IMG/VR virus record: IMGVR_UViG_2778261393_000002
DNA length: 29,964 nt
Reading direction: 5' to 3' (one strand)
DNA from: a virus
Lineage: Duplodnaviria > Heunggongvirae > Uroviricota > Caudoviricetes
The first letter of the stretch is position 1. The number at the start of each line of letters is the position of its first letter. Made by a program: the position numbers and the translations under genes. The notes under the pieces are model-generated. The model ran no database searches. It saw only the letters and a list, made by a program, of their open reading frames with translations, and had not been told where the DNA came from. Below, piece by piece: positions 4,926 to 17,023 of the stretch.

Positions 4926-6845
4926 TTATCCTCCACTCAGAGCAGCCGCGATTTCTTCAATAGTCATTTCATCGTCGTCCTGTTCATCTCTTCTGGCGCG
5001 GGCCAGTGCATCCAGATCCAGTTGCCACCGCTGAACGGAAATGCGCAGCGCTGCATAGGCATACACCAGACAGTCCAGAGCTTCATTACGCCGTTTTCTG
5101 GCATCCCACTGGAGTTTCACCCGCCCGTTCACAACTTTTTCAACCAGCTCTTCTGCCACGAGTTGTTTAGCTTCAACATCAGAAAAAATGTCCGGGTTAT
5201 CCGGAAAACGGAAGGTATACGGTGCGACTTCACTGGCAGATACCACCGGCAGGGCAAAACGCGCATACAGCATTTCCTTGACGGTATCGGAACCCACCTC
5301 ACACAAAAACACCCCACGCTGGTTTCGCTTTTTTGGCATGGTGATCACCGGCTTGCCGTACACCGACGCCCCTTTGATGGGGAGCACAAAAAAAGTGCCG
5401 TGTTTTCTGGATCGCTGATACACAATGTCCTGGTCAATACCACCGGTATCCCAGCAGACGCGGGAAATGGAAATTTCAGTGCCATCTGCATGACGGTATT
5501 TTTTCCGGATCACGGCATCAACGCGTTTAAGGGTGTCCTCATCTTCCGGTCTCCCCATGATGATCTGCTTGTCAATCAGAAAAGCTTCTTCGCCAGGAGC
5601 CCAGCCCCAGACATAAATCTCATAACGGTTTTTCTGAGAGTCGATCCCTGCGGTCAGGTAAACCACCCGCAGGGGAACCTGCGCATCATAGTGGCAGACT
5701 TTTTCCAGCAATAACTCAAAGCTCAGTTTTTCTGCCACAGCCTCTTCATAAGGCTCCCCCAGCGTGGTGTTAATGAACGTCTTGACGCCATTCGGATCCT
5801 TCAGTGCATCAAGCCAGTCATAAACAATCTGTACCCAGGTGGTGAACGGGCTGTATGCCGTCCAGATGTGGTACGAGATTGAGCGCGGTGGCGGGATTTC
5901 CTCATCACCGGCGCTGTAAAATGTCAGACCGTCACGCGTCCACATCCCGGTATTGTCACAAATCCACCGCCCGTCGGTCTGGTCAAGTTCCGACTGACGG
6001 ATCGCGCAGCCATTATGTTCACACAGGTAATACACCGTCTCCGGCTTGCCCTTCTCCCATTTCAGGCCAAAGGTTGTCGCATCATCGCCAAACTTCAGAT
6101 ACTGGGCTTCACCACAATGAGGGCATGGCACATAAAACCGCATAAAATGTGCAGATTCGTTCGCGGCTTTTTCAATCTGGCAAAAACCTTTAATTTTGGG
6201 CGTTGAGCCGCGTATGGATTTAGGCCATACCGAACCTTCGATACGCTTATCGCCAAGCAGAGTTGGTGAACCTTCTTTTTCCACATCCGGTTCAAACGAG
6301 GAGAGTTCGTCATAGCAGACCACATCCACAGATTTTTCACGGTAGTTTTTGGCAGCAGCTCCGCCCAGACACCAGAATCCCACACCGGAGGAGAAACGTT
6401 TCAGGGTAAGCGTGTTGTCCCGATGTTTTCTGCCAAACCACGGAGCCAGCTCCAGTAATACAGGAACGTCTCTTATCGTTGGTTCGACATGGGATTTCAT
6501 AAAATCTTCTGCCGCAGAATCTGTCGGCTGAAAAAGCAGGCTGTTACGGGATTTGTGTTCAATAAAATAAGCCTCCACCCCCAACAGCATTTTGGTGTAA
6601 CCAACACGCGCCGATTTAATCAGATTAACGGTGCGGATCCGGTCATTCCCCATGCTGTTCATGATGGCAACCTGAAACGGCAGTGTTTCCCATTGCCCGG
6701 GAGTATATGAAGACTCTTTTGGCAGATAATAATGCTGATCAGCCCACTGAACTGTCGTCAGTGGTACCGGAATATTGAGAGATACAAGCCCTGTTGCTAT
6801 CGCACCGGCTGCATTAGCTGCCTTCTGTGCGTCTGAAATCATCAA
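4926..6845 (-). CDS. A: Terminase large subunit, lambda gpA-like
   Basis: 639 aa, co-linear with lambda gpA along the whole length ([94 protein letters not shown]). Confidence 0.95.
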
Positions 6846-8045: not shown

Positions 8046-8912
8046 CTAAGCGAGGTTCTGGTTTTCAAATTGTTCCGGACTGAGGCCGCCACACCAACTG
8101 TGCCGCCGCCACCGATTGTAATCACATTCGATATAATTAAACACCGTTGCCCGCATTATTTCCCGGCTGATAAAGTGTTCTCCATGGATACATTCCACTT
8201 TCAGCGAATGAAAGAAGCTTTCCACGCAGGCATTATCGTAGCAGCAACCTTTTGCGCTCATACTTCCACGCAGATTATGCCGCTTCAGTTGCGCCTGATA
8301 ATCTGCTGAACAGTACTGGCCTCCACGGTCCGTGTGAACGATAACGTTCCAGGGCCTCTTACGCCGCCACAGCGCCATCTGCAGGGCATCGCAGGCCAGT
8401 TGCGCCGTCATGCGTGGCGACATTGACCAGCCAATAACGGCACGTGACCACAGGTCAATGACCACTGCCAGATACAGCCAGCCTTCATCTGTACGTAAGT
8501 ACGTGATGTCTCCTGCCCACTTCTGGTTCGGGCCACTGGCGTAAAAATCCTGCTCCAACAGATTTTCTGACACAGGCAGGCCGTGTGCGCGGTAGCTGAC
8601 CGGGCTGAACTTCCGGGAGGCCTTTGCCCTCAGTCCCTGACGGCGCAGGCTTGCCGCCACGGTTTTTTCGTTAAAGGGGTAACCCTGAGCACGCAGTTCA
8701 TCCGTCAGGCGTGGGGCACCGTAACGCTGTTTTGACCGGGTAAAAGCCGCGAGGACAACGCTGTCGCAGTGTTGGCGGAACTGCTGACGCGTGCTTATCC
8801 TTGTCCGCCGCTGACACCACGTATACCAGCCGCTGCGGGCCACCCGGAGCACGCGGCACATTGCTTTGATGCTGAACTCAGCCTGATGTTTTTCAATAAA
8901 GACATACTTCAT
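8046..8912 (-). CDS. insF: IS3 transposase OrfB
   Basis: 288 aa with DDE transposase/integrase core (WAGDITYL ... HTDRGGQY ... [11 protein letters not shown]). Matches IS3 InsF as remembered. Confidence 0.95.
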
Positions 8913-9217
8913 TTCAGGCGCTTCGCGAAGTATGTCGCGGCCTTTTGGAGGATAGCCAGCTCTTCATCCCGTTCTGCCAGCTGGCGTTTGAGACGTGCAA
9001 TCTCGGTAGACATCTCCAGTTCACGTTCAGAAGACGTCTGCTGATTTTGCTGTTTACTGCGCCAGTTGTAGAGCTGTGATTCATACAGGCTGAGTTCACG
9101 GGCTGCGGCAGTAACACCGATGCGTTCAGCAAGCTTCAGGGCTTCACTGCGAAATTCAGGCGAATGCTGTTTACGGGGTTTTTTACTGGTTGATACTGTT
9201 TTTGTCATGTGAGTCAC
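8909..9217 (-). CDS. insE: IS3 transposase OrfA (HTH)
   Basis: 102 aa ending in a leucine-zipper-like segment. Its stop overlaps the orfB ATG in the -1 frame, as expected for IS3-family programmed frameshifting. Confidence 0.95.
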
Positions 9218-10616: not shown

Positions 10617-11162
10617 CTACACCACCACGCGCTCTTTCATCCAGCCATACACGAACGATTCATTAGCCTCACGTTTTTCTGCCAGTTCAAGGTAGCGATC
10701 TCCCTGCGTACAGTTTAGCGCTGTCAGAATCACCAACTCACCATCCCTGCCACGTTTTGACAAATAGGCGCGTAACGCATTAATGGTACGTGGGCCGATA
10801 CAACCATCTGCATCAATGTCCGGATACAACTCTCCTTTCTGGTTAAATACATTAAGCCAGCGCTGAAGCATTCTGGATGCCACTGACGGCCCCATGTTTA
10901 CGCCGGTATCACACAATTCAGCAGCGATCTCCGGAGACAGGCTCGCAACCTTGTGAAAACGTGGCCCGTACCAGTAGTCCGCTTCAAGAATTTCGAGGGC
11001 CTGCCCACGCGTCAGGTCACGAATATCCCCCTGATAACCGTGTGCACGGGCAACTTTTCCAGTAATGCCCCATTTAGTCGGACCACCTTTATCATCAGGG
11101 TGGTTGACGTAGCCGCCCTCTTTGCCAAGAACAGCATCAAAAATTTCATCTTTCGACTTCAT
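10617..11162 (-). CDS. Endolysin, GH108-type lysozyme with peptidoglycan-binding domain
   Basis: Start taken at MKSKDEIF (codon 11160-11162). Motif LGKEGGYVNHPDDKGGPTKWGIT is characteristic of the GH108 N-terminal domain. Follows two holin-like genes. Confidence 0.75.
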   Translation of the reverse strand: MKSKDEIFDAVLGKEGGYVNHPDDKGGPTKWGITGKVARAHGYQGDIRDLTRGQALEILEADYWYGPRFHKVASLSPEIAAELCDTGVNMGPSVASRMLQRWLNVFNQKGELYPDIDADGCIGPRTINALRAYLSKRGRDGELVILTALNCTQGDRYLELAEKREANESFVYGWMKERVVV

Positions 11163-11163
11163 C

Positions 11164-11442
11164 TCAGCGCCTTCGTAATACAAAGATTTTTGAAACGTTC
11201 CCACGAGCACGAACCACCAGCACGCAGAACAGCAGGTTAAAAAACACTTCCAGCCAGCCCGTTGCTAACGGGCGACCACACAGATAGCTGAGGGGCGCAA
11301 AGGCATACAGCAGCATCAGCAACCAGGCCAGCCATGACATCAGCGGTTTATGTCTGGAATCACGACGACGATAAAAAAAGAGCGTCAGCACGATAACCGT
11401 GCATAACGCCACATTCAGCAATCCGGGAAGGTTACTTAACAT
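11164..11442 (-). CDS. Holin or antiholin-like small membrane protein
   Basis: 92 aa from MLSNLPGLL with 2-3 predicted hydrophobic helices and a basic C-terminus. Located between a holin-like gene and the endolysin. Confidence 0.55.
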   Translation of the reverse strand: MLSNLPGLLNVALCTVIVLTLFFYRRRDSRHKPLMSWLAWLLMLLYAFAPLSYLCGRPLATGWLEVFFNLLFCVLVVRARGNVSKIFVLRRR

Positions 11443-11824
11443 TGCCGCCTCCTCCACCCCGCAGGCGGGAGAACAGGCCGGACACCAGCGATGCAATATC
11501 CTGCTGGTGGATGAACGAGAGAATCTTCACCGACACCACCGCCACCAGCACCGCACACAGAGCATCCGCCGATGTACCGTCATAACCTGTTTTTGATGCA
11601 ATCCAGGCTGACAGCACATGCGCACCCAGCACGCCAACGATAAACGACACCAGAAAATGCGCTGCCACACGCCAGGCAGATAGTGCCTGCGGCATTGTGG
11701 CCACAAACAGCGCCCCGGCAAATGCGCCAAACACAATCCCGAAATCCGTTCCGGTAAACAGCCCGAATACCGTCGCCCCGCCGAGCGCCGCAGCCGTGCC
11801 GGAACCGGATAAGGGTTCAGACAT
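11432..11824 (-). CDS. Putative holin, multi-TM membrane protein
   Basis: 131 aa from MSEPLSGSG (SD GGAG upstream) with several Gly/Ala-rich hydrophobic helices. First gene of the lysis cassette. Confidence 0.6.
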   Translation of the reverse strand: MSEPLSGSGTAAALGGATVFGLFTGTDFGIVFGAFAGALFVATMPQALSAWRVAAHFLVSFIVGVLGAHVLSAWIASKTGYDGTSADALCAVLVAVVSVKILSFIHQQDIASLVSGLFSRLRGGGGGNVK

Positions 11825-12003
11825 ACTTTTTCTCCTGTAAATAAAAAAGGGCCACTGTCGGCCCGTAAAAAAACAACACCCCGTCAAAGGCACCCGCAGA
11901 TACCTTTTGTGTGGTGTTATCTGATGTGATGTGCGCCGGACGTGGCGCGGATATAAAAAAGGCCCGCCGCAGCGAGCCTGTTTTCAATGAGTGCAAAATT
12001 CAA

Positions 12004-12747
12004 TTATTCTTGAGTAACACTTAAACTCATCTCATTGAATGCAGCCATCCTGTAACCTGCCGGTGTAACACCAAAATAACTCCTGAATACGCTGATAAAA
12101 TAAGATGTAAAATTATAGCCACACTGAGCAGCGATTCTGTTGATGGCGCAACGAGATTGATTCAACAGCATTGCTGCCATTCTCATTCTCTCTGTAAGCA
12201 ACAACTCACTGAAACAGGTGCCTTCTTCTTTCAGTCTTTTTTTTAACAAACTTTCACTGATACATAACCGCGAAGACACATCTCTCAGAGTCCAGTTTGC
12301 TGCAATGTCCGTACGAAACAATGCACTAAGCCTGTCACTAATATTGCCAATACACGCGGTCAGAAACGACGAAAACATTTTCTCTGATGAGAAAAACGCC
12401 AGACACGAAAAGGAAAGCATTTCCGCTAAATTGTCCGTATGAATCTTTTCCTCACAAAGATAATCAATCAGGATGCCCATCAATTCTGCCTTGGGAAAAC
12501 TCACGCAAAGATATCGTGGTATTTGCCGGACTAAAACTACATCCTGTTTTTCGTCTCCACACAACAGGTAACGGATAATTGTCGATTCACTGAGACTTAT
12601 TCGCCGAAAACATTCCGAAAAGGGCAATAACGATCCAGCTCCCCCCCTGACAAGAAGTGCACTACCACTTTCCAGAGAGAGCTCTTTTCCTTCAAAGAGC
12701 ACAACAAACGGGGAATGAACAAAAACAACAGAACAAGCTTCATTCAT
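12004..12747 (-). CDS. AraC-family transcriptional regulator, AppY/GadX-like
   Basis: C-terminal AraC HTH signature (SESLLKKRLKEEGTCFSELLLTERMRMAAMLLNQSRCAINRIAAQCGYNFTSYFISVFRSYFGVTPAGY). N-terminal CSVVF motif shared with DLP12 AppY as recalled. Start taken at MNEACSVVF. Confidence 0.8.
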   Translation of the reverse strand: MNEACSVVFVHSPFVVLFEGKELSLESGSALLVRGGAGSLLPFSECFRRISLSESTIIRYLLCGDEKQDVVLVRQIPRYLCVSFPKAELMGILIDYLCEEKIHTDNLAEMLSFSCLAFFSSEKMFSSFLTACIGNISDRLSALFRTDIAANWTLRDVSSRLCISESLLKKRLKEEGTCFSELLLTERMRMAAMLLNQSRCAINRIAAQCGYNFTSYFISVFRSYFGVTPAGYRMAAFNEMSLSVTQE

Positions 12748-12969
12748 ATCAATTGCCCTGACATTACTGGTCACAAGATAAGTATATATCGATTTACAAA
12801 AATACAAGCCGAAAGACCAGTATTCGCAACCACCAGCGCGTTTAACGTCCTGTACCGTTTTTCAGGCATAAAAAACCCGCTCAGTGGCGGGTTTAAGCTG
12901 TTTGGCGTAGTAACCACTCTTAACAGGATATTCAACTTTTTACGATCGTAAAGCGTTCGGGGAAAATTT

Positions 12970-13458
12970 TTAAAACCGTTCCAGAGTGCATACCATCGCA
13001 TCGGCGGGTAGTTTTTCCGTGAAGTCGACCTGACCGTGTTTATCGAAGTGGATCAGTAATGCGCATCCATCATTTTGGGTTGGGGTGTTTTGTGCTGCTG
13101 GTGGTTGTTTTTGGCTGAAATAACAGTCTTCCAGTTTTTCGAACACTTCCCACGCCTGATCGGTTTCCAGCATTTTGGCGTGACGGGCTGCTCCGCGTTC
13201 TGTCCAGAGGATGAGGTGCTTTGTACGCGGTGCAACTAAGTTACTTTGAGTAACCTTGTTCTTAAATTCCCGCAACTCAGCCCCTTCCAATTTGAAGTAG
13301 TGTTTCCCACAAACAAAACGCTCGGCATTGCGTGTATAGTTCACTTTGATGTTATTAGTTTCGGTGCCATAAAGTTGTGCCAAAAGCTCGGTAGTAATGA
13401 CAGGGATTTGGTTATGGGTGATCGGGGAAAGAGTTTCAACTGAGATTTGAATAGCCAT
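12970..13458 (-). CDS. ORF6N-domain DNA-binding protein, antirepressor-like
   Basis: 162 aa. N-terminus (ITTELLAQLYGTETNNIKVNYTRNAERFVCGKHYFKLEGAELREFK) fits the ORF6N/KilA-N-like pattern. SD AAGGA upstream. Confidence 0.6.
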   Translation of the reverse strand: MAIQISVETLSPITHNQIPVITTELLAQLYGTETNNIKVNYTRNAERFVCGKHYFKLEGAELREFKNKVTQSNLVAPRTKHLILWTERGAARHAKMLETDQAWEVFEKLEDCYFSQKQPPAAQNTPTQNDGCALLIHFDKHGQVDFTEKLPADAMVCTLERF

Positions 13459-13612
13459 AGGATGATCCTTTTTCTATGTGAATCATCACCACTGCTGACG
13501 CCAATCAGTATGGTGGTGAACTGTGCAGGGTTGGCGTAACCGGGAAAAAGGAACCGGCGCGGATCGCTCCGCCCCCACACAGCCCACCATTGAGATGTGA
13601 CAGTGCAAACGA

Positions 13613-13637
13613 CAATAAAAAAGACGCTGGCGCGTCT
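13613..13637 (-). terminator. tR'-like Rho-independent terminator downstream of Q
   Basis: Stem AGACGC (13622-13627) and GCGTCT (13632-13637) with 4-nt loop, then a U-run on the minus strand (plus-strand AATAAAAA 13613-13620). About 95 nt downstream of the Q stop, as expected for a late-promoter leader terminator. Confidence 0.5.
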
Positions 13638-13731
13638 GTTGTCGCCTTTTTCATCCGGGACGCCAATCCCGACGCCAGATTTTGCTGGCGCGTGAGGAAT
13701 ATAGCCCCGGACAATGTGTCTGGTCAAGCTC

Positions 13732-14127
13732 CTACATGATTCGTTCTACGTATCTGTCCATCTCCAGTCGGATATCAAGCATCATCAACATGCCATCAAT
13801 AACCCCTTCCGCTTTCTGCAGGCGCTTGCCAATACAGGTATCCGAACACCCATGCTTTCGTGCCAACCCCATAAAAGTCATTCCACCTACGTAATAATCC
13901 ACCAACAAATCGTGCAAATCCTGATTTTTCTTGTTCAACCGGGCCATACAGCCACAAATTATCATTGCATCATCATCAGAACACTGAGGGCGTGATTTCA
14001 CTTTCGGCGGGATTAATCCTTTAAAACCAGCAGCGATTGACGCCCATGACACATCTTCGTGATTGTTCGCAGCCCATGCTCCCCACCGCTCCATAACCTG
14101 CTGAATATCACGCACCATCGTTATCAC
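13732..14127 (-). CDS. Late-gene antiterminator Q (QuuD / phage 82 family)
   Basis: 131 aa ([60 protein letters not shown] ...) closely resembles DLP12 QuuD as recalled. Start may be M1 or M4. Confidence 0.8.
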
Positions 14128-16656: not shown

Positions 16657-16812
16657 TTACTCCTCAGGTTCGTAAGCTGTGAAGACAGCGACCTCCGTCT
16701 GGCCGGTTCGGATTCGTACCTCGCAGAGGTCTTTCCTCGTTACCAGTGCCGTCACAATGACGGTTAAACAGATGACGATCAGGGCGATTAACATCGCCTT
16801 TTGCTGCTTCAT
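16657..16812 (-). CDS. hokD: Hok/Gef-family type I toxin
   Basis: 51 aa MKQQKAMLIALIVICLTVIVTALVTRKDLCEVRIRTGQTEVAVFTAYEPEE with AAGGAG SD, matching HokD/RelF as recalled. An overlapping upstream frame (to 16869) is the mok-like reading frame. Confidence 0.85.
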   Translation of the reverse strand: MKQQKAMLIALIVICLTVIVTALVTRKDLCEVRIRTGQTEVAVFTAYEPEE

Positions 16813-17023
16813 AGCCTGCTTCTCCTTGCCTTTCGGCACGTAAGAGGCTAACCTAGATTTGCCGTTCATAGATTGAGCCTCAGATTAATGTTAAGCGTCT
16901 TGCAGGACGCGTAATGTTAACTGGGGCTTTTCTCTATCTGCCTTTGGTGTTCATGCCTGAGACAGATAGCCTCAAGCACCCGCAGCCATTCTACTTAACT
17001 CCCGTTACCTCGCCAATATAAAA

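Follow-up and report, generated by a model that had tools for sequence, protein, structure and literature searches.

The stretch of DNA analysed here (29,964 nucleotides (nt); IMG/VR record IMGVR_UViG_2778261393_000002; hereafter the window) is an Escherichia coli lambdoid prophage, and the 1.9 kb around its genes for an AraC-family regulator and an ORF6N protein find a perfect match (100% identity) in the chromosome of strain VG35A2. These two genes probably belong to two independent units that lie side by side, namely a moron carrying the AraC-family regulator (12004-12894) and an IsrK/C4/antirepressor cassette containing the ORF6N gene (12970-13727). The late genes of the minus strand follow the order DUF968 and RusA, the antiterminator gene Q, the ORF6N open reading frame (ORF), the AraC-family ORF, two holins and a GH108 endolysin. 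The original prediction had located both ORFs in this slot, and their placement agrees exactly with it, both lying on the minus strand, with Q (13732-14115) on one side and the holins (from 11824) on the other.

The AraC module in the Q-holin slot

The features on the AraC side of the slot are as follows:

12004..12747, minus strand: AraC/XylS-family regulator gene, 247 amino acids (aa), WP_001345622.1 (Pfam, RefSeq, NCBIfam, BLASTP)
12775..12807, minus strand: conserved block 5' of the AraC gene with a weak candidate promoter (TTGTAT at 12807-12802, 15-nt spacer, TATACT at 12786-12781)
12870..12894, minus strand: intrinsic terminator T2 (hairpin of -12 kcal/mol, then a U-run)
11960..11979, minus strand: intrinsic terminator T3, directly 3' of the AraC stop codon (hairpin of -15.5 to -16.8 kcal/mol, z = -4.4)
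11849..11864, minus strand: intrinsic terminator T4, just 5' of the holin ribosome-binding site

At T2 the Q/IsrK/C4/ORF6N module gives way to the AraC cargo, and this terminator is common to the AraC modules of SA31-1, STEC307 and W13-16. In STEC719, the same Q, spacer, ORF6N gene and T2 precede another, unrelated cargo, comprising tRNAs and genes for an OB-fold protein and a methyltransferase, with the homology stopping right after T2; elsewhere the AraC unit stands behind other Q types. It thus behaves like a moron that can be exchanged, with T2 as its left junction. The regulator was found downstream of Q and upstream of the holin in all five of the genomic contexts examined, behind three types of Q. 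SA31-1 and STEC307 possess a 273-aa lambda-type Q directly upstream of the AraC module; W13-16 has a 121-aa Q and then two opposite-strand genes ahead of it; and UTAK-5 keeps the arrangement of the window, with an IS66 element inside the ORF6N gene. In most other genomes the AraC module occurs without the ORF6N gene, and regulator homologues of 82% and 42% identity are also located ~200 nt after a Q gene. Like other morons, the unit is present or absent at a fixed junction, carries a terminator of its own (T3) and has a deviant guanine-cytosine (GC) content, although its description as AT-rich is only moderately true, as the gene has 41.7% GC compared to 46.4% for the window and 53.7% for the lysis genes. 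From its position T2 looks like a recombination linker. Meanwhile, the regulator allele of STEC307 is 99.7% identical, yet the 60 nt upstream of it match the 82% lineage, indicating recombination at the gene start; DNA methyltransferase genes follow the regulator there. It was also observed that the T2 sequence (AAACCCGCC..GAGCGGGTTTTTT) recurs between differing upstream modules and differing cargo, and that in STEC307 (L010 4251-5000) the methyltransferase gene begins right after the AraC stop codon, in place of T3.

The slot had been compared to that where Stx phages carry stx, and this is correct, as the same slot holds stx1 in phiSTEC1589-Stx1c; it also holds gogA in Gifsy-1 and psrA in Sakai Sp4. 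Prophage-borne regulators of the GAD type are already well known and, with psrA in the same slot of Sp4, the architecture seen in the window is already documented for this protein clade. The recurrence of the regulator behind three Q types indicates, in turn, that such regulators, as well as toxins, generally use the Q-holin slot as a landing site.

Regarding the integrity of the gene, the ORF at 12004-12807 begins mechanically at a TTG codon (12807), and the likely real start is the ATG at 12747, giving a product identical to RefSeq WP_001345622.1. Compared with homologues whose proteins share 82% and ~85% identity, the gene has a ratio of nonsynonymous to synonymous substitutions (dN/dS) of 0.30-0.33. 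Judged by its open frame and this ratio, the regulator gene is intact and under purifying selection, which rules out the pseudogene that the original prediction had allowed for. Among 5426 complete E. coli genomes, 65 (1.2%) carry the regulator, always on the chromosome and with the frame annotated as intact in nearly all of them, a few alleles seeming disrupted (H50, H65). Alleles of at least 95% identity are found in 42 of these carriers, mostly from cattle, farm or meat sources, and alleles of ~92% identity in the other 23, mostly porcine enterotoxigenic E. coli, the sampling bias being unknown in both groups. The named members of its sequence cluster are E. coli without exception, and no close homologue was found among deposited phage genomes, where the best match reached 40.5% identity. 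In addition, several gut-isolated lambda-like phages (Lambda_ev series) possess a 37%-identical AraC-family gene at ~43.5-44.2 kb, near the right genome end, annotated as hypothetical.

The regulator and its relatives

The regulator bears the hallmark of AraC/XylS proteins, a C-terminal region of ~100 aa with two helix-turn-helix motifs, and passes the Pfam cut-offs for HTH_18 (51.3 bits, cut-off 33.6) and HTH_AraC (49.6 bits, cut-off 26.6). The best NCBIfam model is YdeO (E = 8e-43), which aligns collinearly, residues 2-230 corresponding to model positions 2-228 of 253. A homology search found the PatE candidate ECs_0287 as the closest characterised regulator (39% over 234 aa), followed, in BLASTP alignments that span ~230-242 aa for the whole group, by YdeO (36.5%), GadW (36%), PsrA (ECs_1087, 35%) and AppY (30%). 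With these five proteins the homology is collinear over the whole length, including the N-terminal domain of ~140 aa, and GadX aligns only across its C-terminal 132 aa, the DNA-binding half. By these alignments, the regulator is a distinct paralogue within the GadX/GadW/YdeO/AppY/PatE/Psr clade and the orthologue of none of its members, nearer to PatE, YdeO and GadW than to AppY. Thus, the relationship to AppY and GadX proposed beforehand was right as to the clade but not as to the nearest members, which are those sharing 35-39% identity over the full length.

The structure of the regulator was modelled with AlphaFold (AF2) from an alignment of eight sequences, resulting in a mean predicted local distance difference test score (pLDDT) of 65, and only the comparison of the DNA-binding domain (DBD) is usable. 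This domain (pLDDT 80-95) superposes on the GadX DBD (3mkl) with a template-modelling (TM) score of 0.91-0.93 and a root-mean-square deviation of 1.0 Å; the GadX DBD is also the best match in the Protein Data Bank (PDB) by sequence (E = 2e-22). The full-length model compared to Rns, CsvR and ToxT gives a TM score of ~0.40, which carries little information beyond family membership. Concerning the residues that contact DNA in the first recognition helix, K169 of the regulator aligns with K170 of AppY, a lysine found throughout the clade, whose SESLLKKRLK motif is also nearly unchanged. In AppY, the K170E change abolishes DNA binding (PMC10057817). In PHROGs, the regulator belongs to phrog_1450.

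Among the characterised relatives, ECs_0287, an AraC-family gene of the Sakai prophage Sp1, is taken to be PatE/Z0321 by position only. It is likewise a prophage-borne AraC/XylS protein of 247 aa and the best pairwise match, the similarity including the N-terminal domain; it differs in lying at the end of a prophage remnant, by insertion sequence (IS) fragments, rather than in the Q-holin slot. PatE activates gadE, gadBC and hdeAB (PMC10877973). The psrA gene of Sakai Sp4 resembles the regulator gene in its position, on the same strand downstream of Q (ECs_1084) and ahead of late genes, and in its clade. PsrA and PsrB are 90% identical to each other, and the 35% identity of the regulator to PsrA does not place it in close relationship to Psr. 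Moreover, psrA in Sp4 is followed by the ileZ-argN-argO tRNAs, near pchA, whereas a search for tRNAs in the window found none, nor is an effector or pch gene annotated in its 30 kb, the tail-fibre end, which is the usual effector site, lying outside the window. Both PsrA and PsrB drive gadE, and six additional Psr homologs are mentioned in the review that describes them (PMC10877973); psrB itself was sought in Sakai Sp10 and was not found there.

The chromosomal acid-resistance regulators of K-12, YdeO, GadW and GadX, are related through the best model (YdeO), the 36-37% identity of YdeO and GadW and the DBD match of GadX; they are core genes, in contrast to the regulator, a horizontally acquired cargo that scores far under the equivalog cut-offs. 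AppY, from the K-12 prophage DLP12, is also prophage-encoded, of the same clade and conserved at the DNA-binding lysine, but only 30% identical, and its gene occupies a site outside the Q-holin slot, next to ompT at the right end of DLP12. Genes reported to be under direct activation by AppY include gadE, gadY and slp (PMC10057817).

The IsrK/C4/ORF6N cassette

The features between Q and the AraC module are as follows:

13732..14115, minus strand: Q antiterminator gene, 127 aa, QuuD type (Pfam PF06530, 176 bits; RefSeq start)
13698..13727, minus strand: sigma-70 promoter-like site TTGACC-18-TATATT (promoter scan), 5 nt 3' of the Q stop codon, the expected place of pR'
13652..13704, minus strand: c4-a1b1 element overlapping IsrK (Rfam RF03163, 52.2 bits; gathering threshold (GA) 46.7)
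13617..13691, minus strand: IsrK-type small RNA (sRNA) (Rfam RF01394, 79.4 bits; GA 50)
13622..13637, minus strand: IsrK intrinsic terminator (terminator scan; hairpin of -9.3 kcal/mol)
13509..13594, minus strand: C4-type antisense RNA, equal to the 'orf45' region of Gifsy-1 (Rfam RF01695, 74 bits; GA 45; minimum free energy -43.5 kcal/mol, z = -3.8)
13466..13504, minus strand: segment of the ORF6N leader with two sites predicted as C4 targets (UUGGCGU at 13504-13498; GAAAAAGGA at 13474-13466, over the Shine-Dalgarno sequence)
12970..13458, minus strand: ORF6N-domain antirepressor gene (AnrP/Ant type), 162 aa (Pfam ORF6N, 77 bits; cut-off 27.8)

The ORF6N protein had been regarded as a DNA-binding moron partner of the regulator, and this part of the original prediction has to be replaced, as the gene encodes instead the antirepressor of a separate IsrK/C4 cassette. 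Its product hits the PHROGs family phrog_2379, 'anti-repressor', with E = 3e-78 over positions 1-163 of the 187 in the profile, and shares 60% identity with STM2616 of Gifsy-1, which follows the Gifsy-1 Q antiterminator (STM2617) and isrK and is taken, by position, to be AnrP (tag SL2578 of SL1344 in PMC4825925). Compared to the 188-aa protein of STEC719, the final 26 aa are missing through an in-frame deletion of 72 bp located between a pair of CGGTTT repeats, and the lost C-terminus includes a motif conserved in homologues of 182-188 aa; PGAP marks the gene as a pseudogene. The truncated allele is common to 12 of the 12 genomes with the full arrangement, and by its sequence the antirepressor is probably inactive or weakened, which would fit a domesticated prophage. 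The corrected reading of ORF6N matters for annotation, since the gene is part of a damaged lysis-lysogeny control element and not a conversion cargo.

The spacer of 273 nt after Q holds three RNA elements scored by Rfam, all above their gathering thresholds. IsrK begins 7 nt beyond the -10 of the promoter (13727-13698), whose -35 and -10 are conserved with PisrK of Gifsy-1. The C4 loop UCCUUUUUC (positions 43-51, 13544-13552) is exactly complementary over 9 nt to GAAAAAGGA, and a second C4 site, ACGCCAA (positions 58-64), pairs exactly over 7 nt with UUGGCGU; both target motifs recur in IsrK, the IsrK motif lying at 13645-13652. The motif over the ribosome-binding site of the ORF6N gene differs among phages, being GAAAAAGGA in this prophage, GUAACCA in STEC719 and AUCACC in Gifsy-1, and in STEC719 and Gifsy-1 all three partners, the C4 loop and the sites in the leader and in IsrK, have changed together to other matching sequences, as judged by eye on three sequences. 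This covariation suggests the pattern expected of a P1-type C4/ant switch with phage-specific pairing, like the heteroimmunity of P1 and P7. The global energies calculated with RNAduplex for C4 against the ORF6N leader or IsrK showed no excess over shuffled controls, so that only the short exact complementarities and the covariation are informative.

The closest known arrangement is the antQ-PisrK-isrK-orf45-anrP region of Gifsy-1, which likewise possesses Q, the promoter, an IsrK of 75-77 nt with its terminator, a C4-like region, an ORF6N antirepressor, cargo and holin, the spacer between Q and ORF6N being ~85% identical. In Gifsy-1, read-through of the IsrK terminator together with IsrK acting in trans turns on AnrP translation, and AnrP raises Q expression (PMC4825925). 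A small ORF upstream of the Gifsy-1 antirepressor overlaps its start via AUGA (PMC4825925), in contrast to the window, where the small ORF (13608-13486) ends 28 nt short of the ATG at 13458 and is not translationally coupled to the antirepressor. The window further differs in its unrelated upstream Q, the missing C-terminus of its antirepressor and the absence of any isrJ homologue found downstream of ORF6N. The immI region of P1 and P7 (c4, icd, ant) shares the C4 and c4-a1b1 elements ahead of an antirepressor and the complementarity at two sites, one 5' of C4 and the other at the downstream ribosome-binding site, but in the window there is no icd-like gene and the antirepressor is of the ORF6N type. 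In its build, the cassette of the window resembles the P1 c4-ant operon. Besides Gifsy-1, a second IsrK-C4-ORF6N copy occurs in the early (nin/hok) region of SA31-1 (L008 10295-10494), indicating that the cassette is mobile within phage genomes. Regarding Q, the protein is 82% identical to K-12 QuuD, with a distant match to the Q21 structures 6p18 and 6jnx; no IsrK or C4 element was found downstream of quuD in K-12 DLP12, which has no bearing on whether PisrK is the cognate late promoter.

Expression, function and neighbouring genes

The site at 13727-13698 is the sole promoter-like site reported between 11400 and 14300, thus the only candidate for the late promoter, and from its position this PisrK equivalent may be the Q-loaded pR'. 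The tR'-like terminator recognised in the original prediction exists as an intrinsic terminator after Q (13637-13622), its identity being the terminator of the IsrK sRNA. In SA31-1-type phages T2 (L008 5872-5891 in SA31-1) lies ~80 nt after the lambda-type Q gene and, by this location, probably serves as tR'. As the IsrK terminator and T2 should halt unmodified RNA polymerase, expression of the regulator in the lysogen needs a promoter of its own. The candidate for it lies in the block at 12775-12807, which is kept in seven loci, including those of homologues 82-92% identical, and the sequence TATACTTA within it resembles the -10 favoured by sigma-S, a lead only. On the other hand, polymerase modified by Q would pass all four terminators (T1 to T4), making co-expression of the regulator on induction plausible; a dependence of the AraC gene on Q is likewise plausible. 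With terminators on both sides of the gene, strictly Q-coupled expression is not the likeliest mode in the lysogen.

It could still be argued that the ORF6N and AraC genes are a joint late-operon cargo, dependent on Q antitermination from pR' like stx, and that the host is rewired only during induction. Both genes are co-oriented with Q and the holins and lie between the only promoter-like site and the lysis genes, T1 to T4 would block unmodified polymerase, and the candidate promoter of the AraC gene is weak, all of which agree with such a cargo. Nevertheless, ORF6N and AraC behave as separate modules with differing distributions, and ORF6N is part of a phage regulatory circuit, besides being truncated. 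Furthermore, a regulator made minutes before lysis would hardly be able to benefit the lysogen, and two relatives, PatE and PsrA, are active in lysogens that have not been induced (PMC10877973). Taken together, a joint cargo is unlikely, though it deserves consideration.

Under the preferred reading of two independent units, the regulator would be made in the lysogen from its own weak or activator-dependent promoter and, on induction, would also be transcribed by Q-modified RNA polymerase passing T1 to T4 towards the holins. By analogy with characterised relatives, it would bind AT-rich sites at acid fitness island promoters (gadE, hdeA and similar) and raise acid resistance, with pleiotropic effects like those of AppY and Psr and possible side-effects on motility or type III secretion. 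Meanwhile, the C4 loop would pair with the ribosome-binding site of the antirepressor, which without its C-terminal 26 aa is probably inactive or weakened. GadX, GadW, YdeO, AppY, PatE, PsrA and PsrB converge on gadE, hdeA and the acid fitness island (PMC10877973; PMC10057817), and the 39%-identical AraC relative P0014 (L019 4001-4729), which is chromosomal and not phage-borne, lies ~1.1 kb from an HdeA-family gene (5834-6094). From this convergence and this neighbourhood, we infer that the regulator would activate promoters of the gadE/hdeA type and raise acid resistance. P0014 also adjoins LysR and phenolic-acid-decarboxylase genes. The proposal of a lysogenic-conversion candidate is reasonable, the regulator being intact, of the AraC family and placed in the Q-holin slot.

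Several points weigh against parts of this reading. The regulator scores far under the NCBIfam equivalog cut-offs (147 against 348 bits for YdeO and 98 against 500 for GadX) and its N-terminal domain is just 20-30% identical to those of the characterised relatives, so that its regulon could differ; the N-terminal half of the AF2 model is also unreliable, with pLDDT below 50 for residues 71-133. The candidate AraC promoter has a spacer of 15 nt, which weakens the case for it, and falls under the threshold of the promoter scan, and the region upstream of the gene is conserved no better than the coding sequence. As for pR', the same promoter-IsrK-C4-ORF6N cassette stands behind an unrelated Q in Gifsy-1 and far from Q in SA31-1. 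The truncated ORF6N frame is open in all 12 genomes, and the protein may therefore retain activity. Finally, WP_001345622.1 is absent from the searchable literature.

A bolder version holds that the regulator is an E. coli-restricted sub-lineage whose N-terminal domain could sense a gut signal, with a regulon beyond the GAD island; if the IsrK promoter were the Q-loaded late promoter, read-through would switch on C4, the antirepressor and the regulator, linking the induction feedback loop to host stress physiology. This version is quite doubtful. It is very unlikely that the AraC protein regulates phage functions (the antirepressor cassette, lysis timing or superinfection immunity) instead of host genes: its gene adjoins a lysis-lysogeny control cassette inside the late operon, and PHROGs lists phrog_1450 as function unknown, but the neighbours and the types of Q, ORF6N and endolysin around it are unrelated from one genome to another, which makes a fixed phage target unlikely, the characterised members of the clade all act on host promoters, and one relative is chromosomal, beside an HdeA-family gene. 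Equally improbable is that the region represents debris of a decaying prophage, with the AraC gene as a silent passenger without current function. The prophage is indeed damaged (IS3 insertion, truncated ORF6N, frameshifted genes), with an IS66 element in the ORF6N gene of UTAK-5, and the regulator is rare and apparently disrupted in a few alleles; nevertheless, dN/dS is ~0.3 across the lineage, nearly every carrier has an unbroken frame of 247 aa and the DNA-contact residues are conserved. A defence system was also considered and dropped, as PADLOC gave no match for the regulator and just weak ORF6N-domain matches to a candidate system.

Prophage-borne regulators of the GadX/YdeO type (AppY, PatE, PsrA/B) take over GadE, altering acid survival, motility, biofilm formation and type III secretion. 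To this group the regulator adds an uncharacterised and divergent member, at most 39% identical to any studied protein, found in ~1% of complete E. coli genomes, most of the listed carriers being livestock-associated, with unknown sampling bias. Should it turn out to activate gadE as well, the group would merely gain one more ordinary case; with other targets, the regulator would instead represent a novel instance of host regulation rewired by a phage.

Downstream of the slot, the lysis genes are arranged as follows:

10617..11824, minus strand: lysis cassette (Pfam Phage_holin_8, Phage_holin_3_7, Glyco_hydro_108, PG_binding_3; RefSeq coordinates)
11432-11824 and 11164-11442, minus strand: holins (RefSeq)
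10617-11162, minus strand: GH108 endolysin (RefSeq)

Bor and DUF1398 genes are located on the strand opposite to the late region. An IS3-family element with a programmed-frameshift transposase (~8046-9208) separates the small terminase gene from the DUF1398/Bor genes, and further prophage genes are frameshifted in the RefSeq annotation, indicating that the prophage may be defective. Elsewhere in the window, a hokD-type toxin ORF (16657-16869, minus strand) is accompanied by a sok antisense RNA (16981-16807; RF01794, 110 bits).

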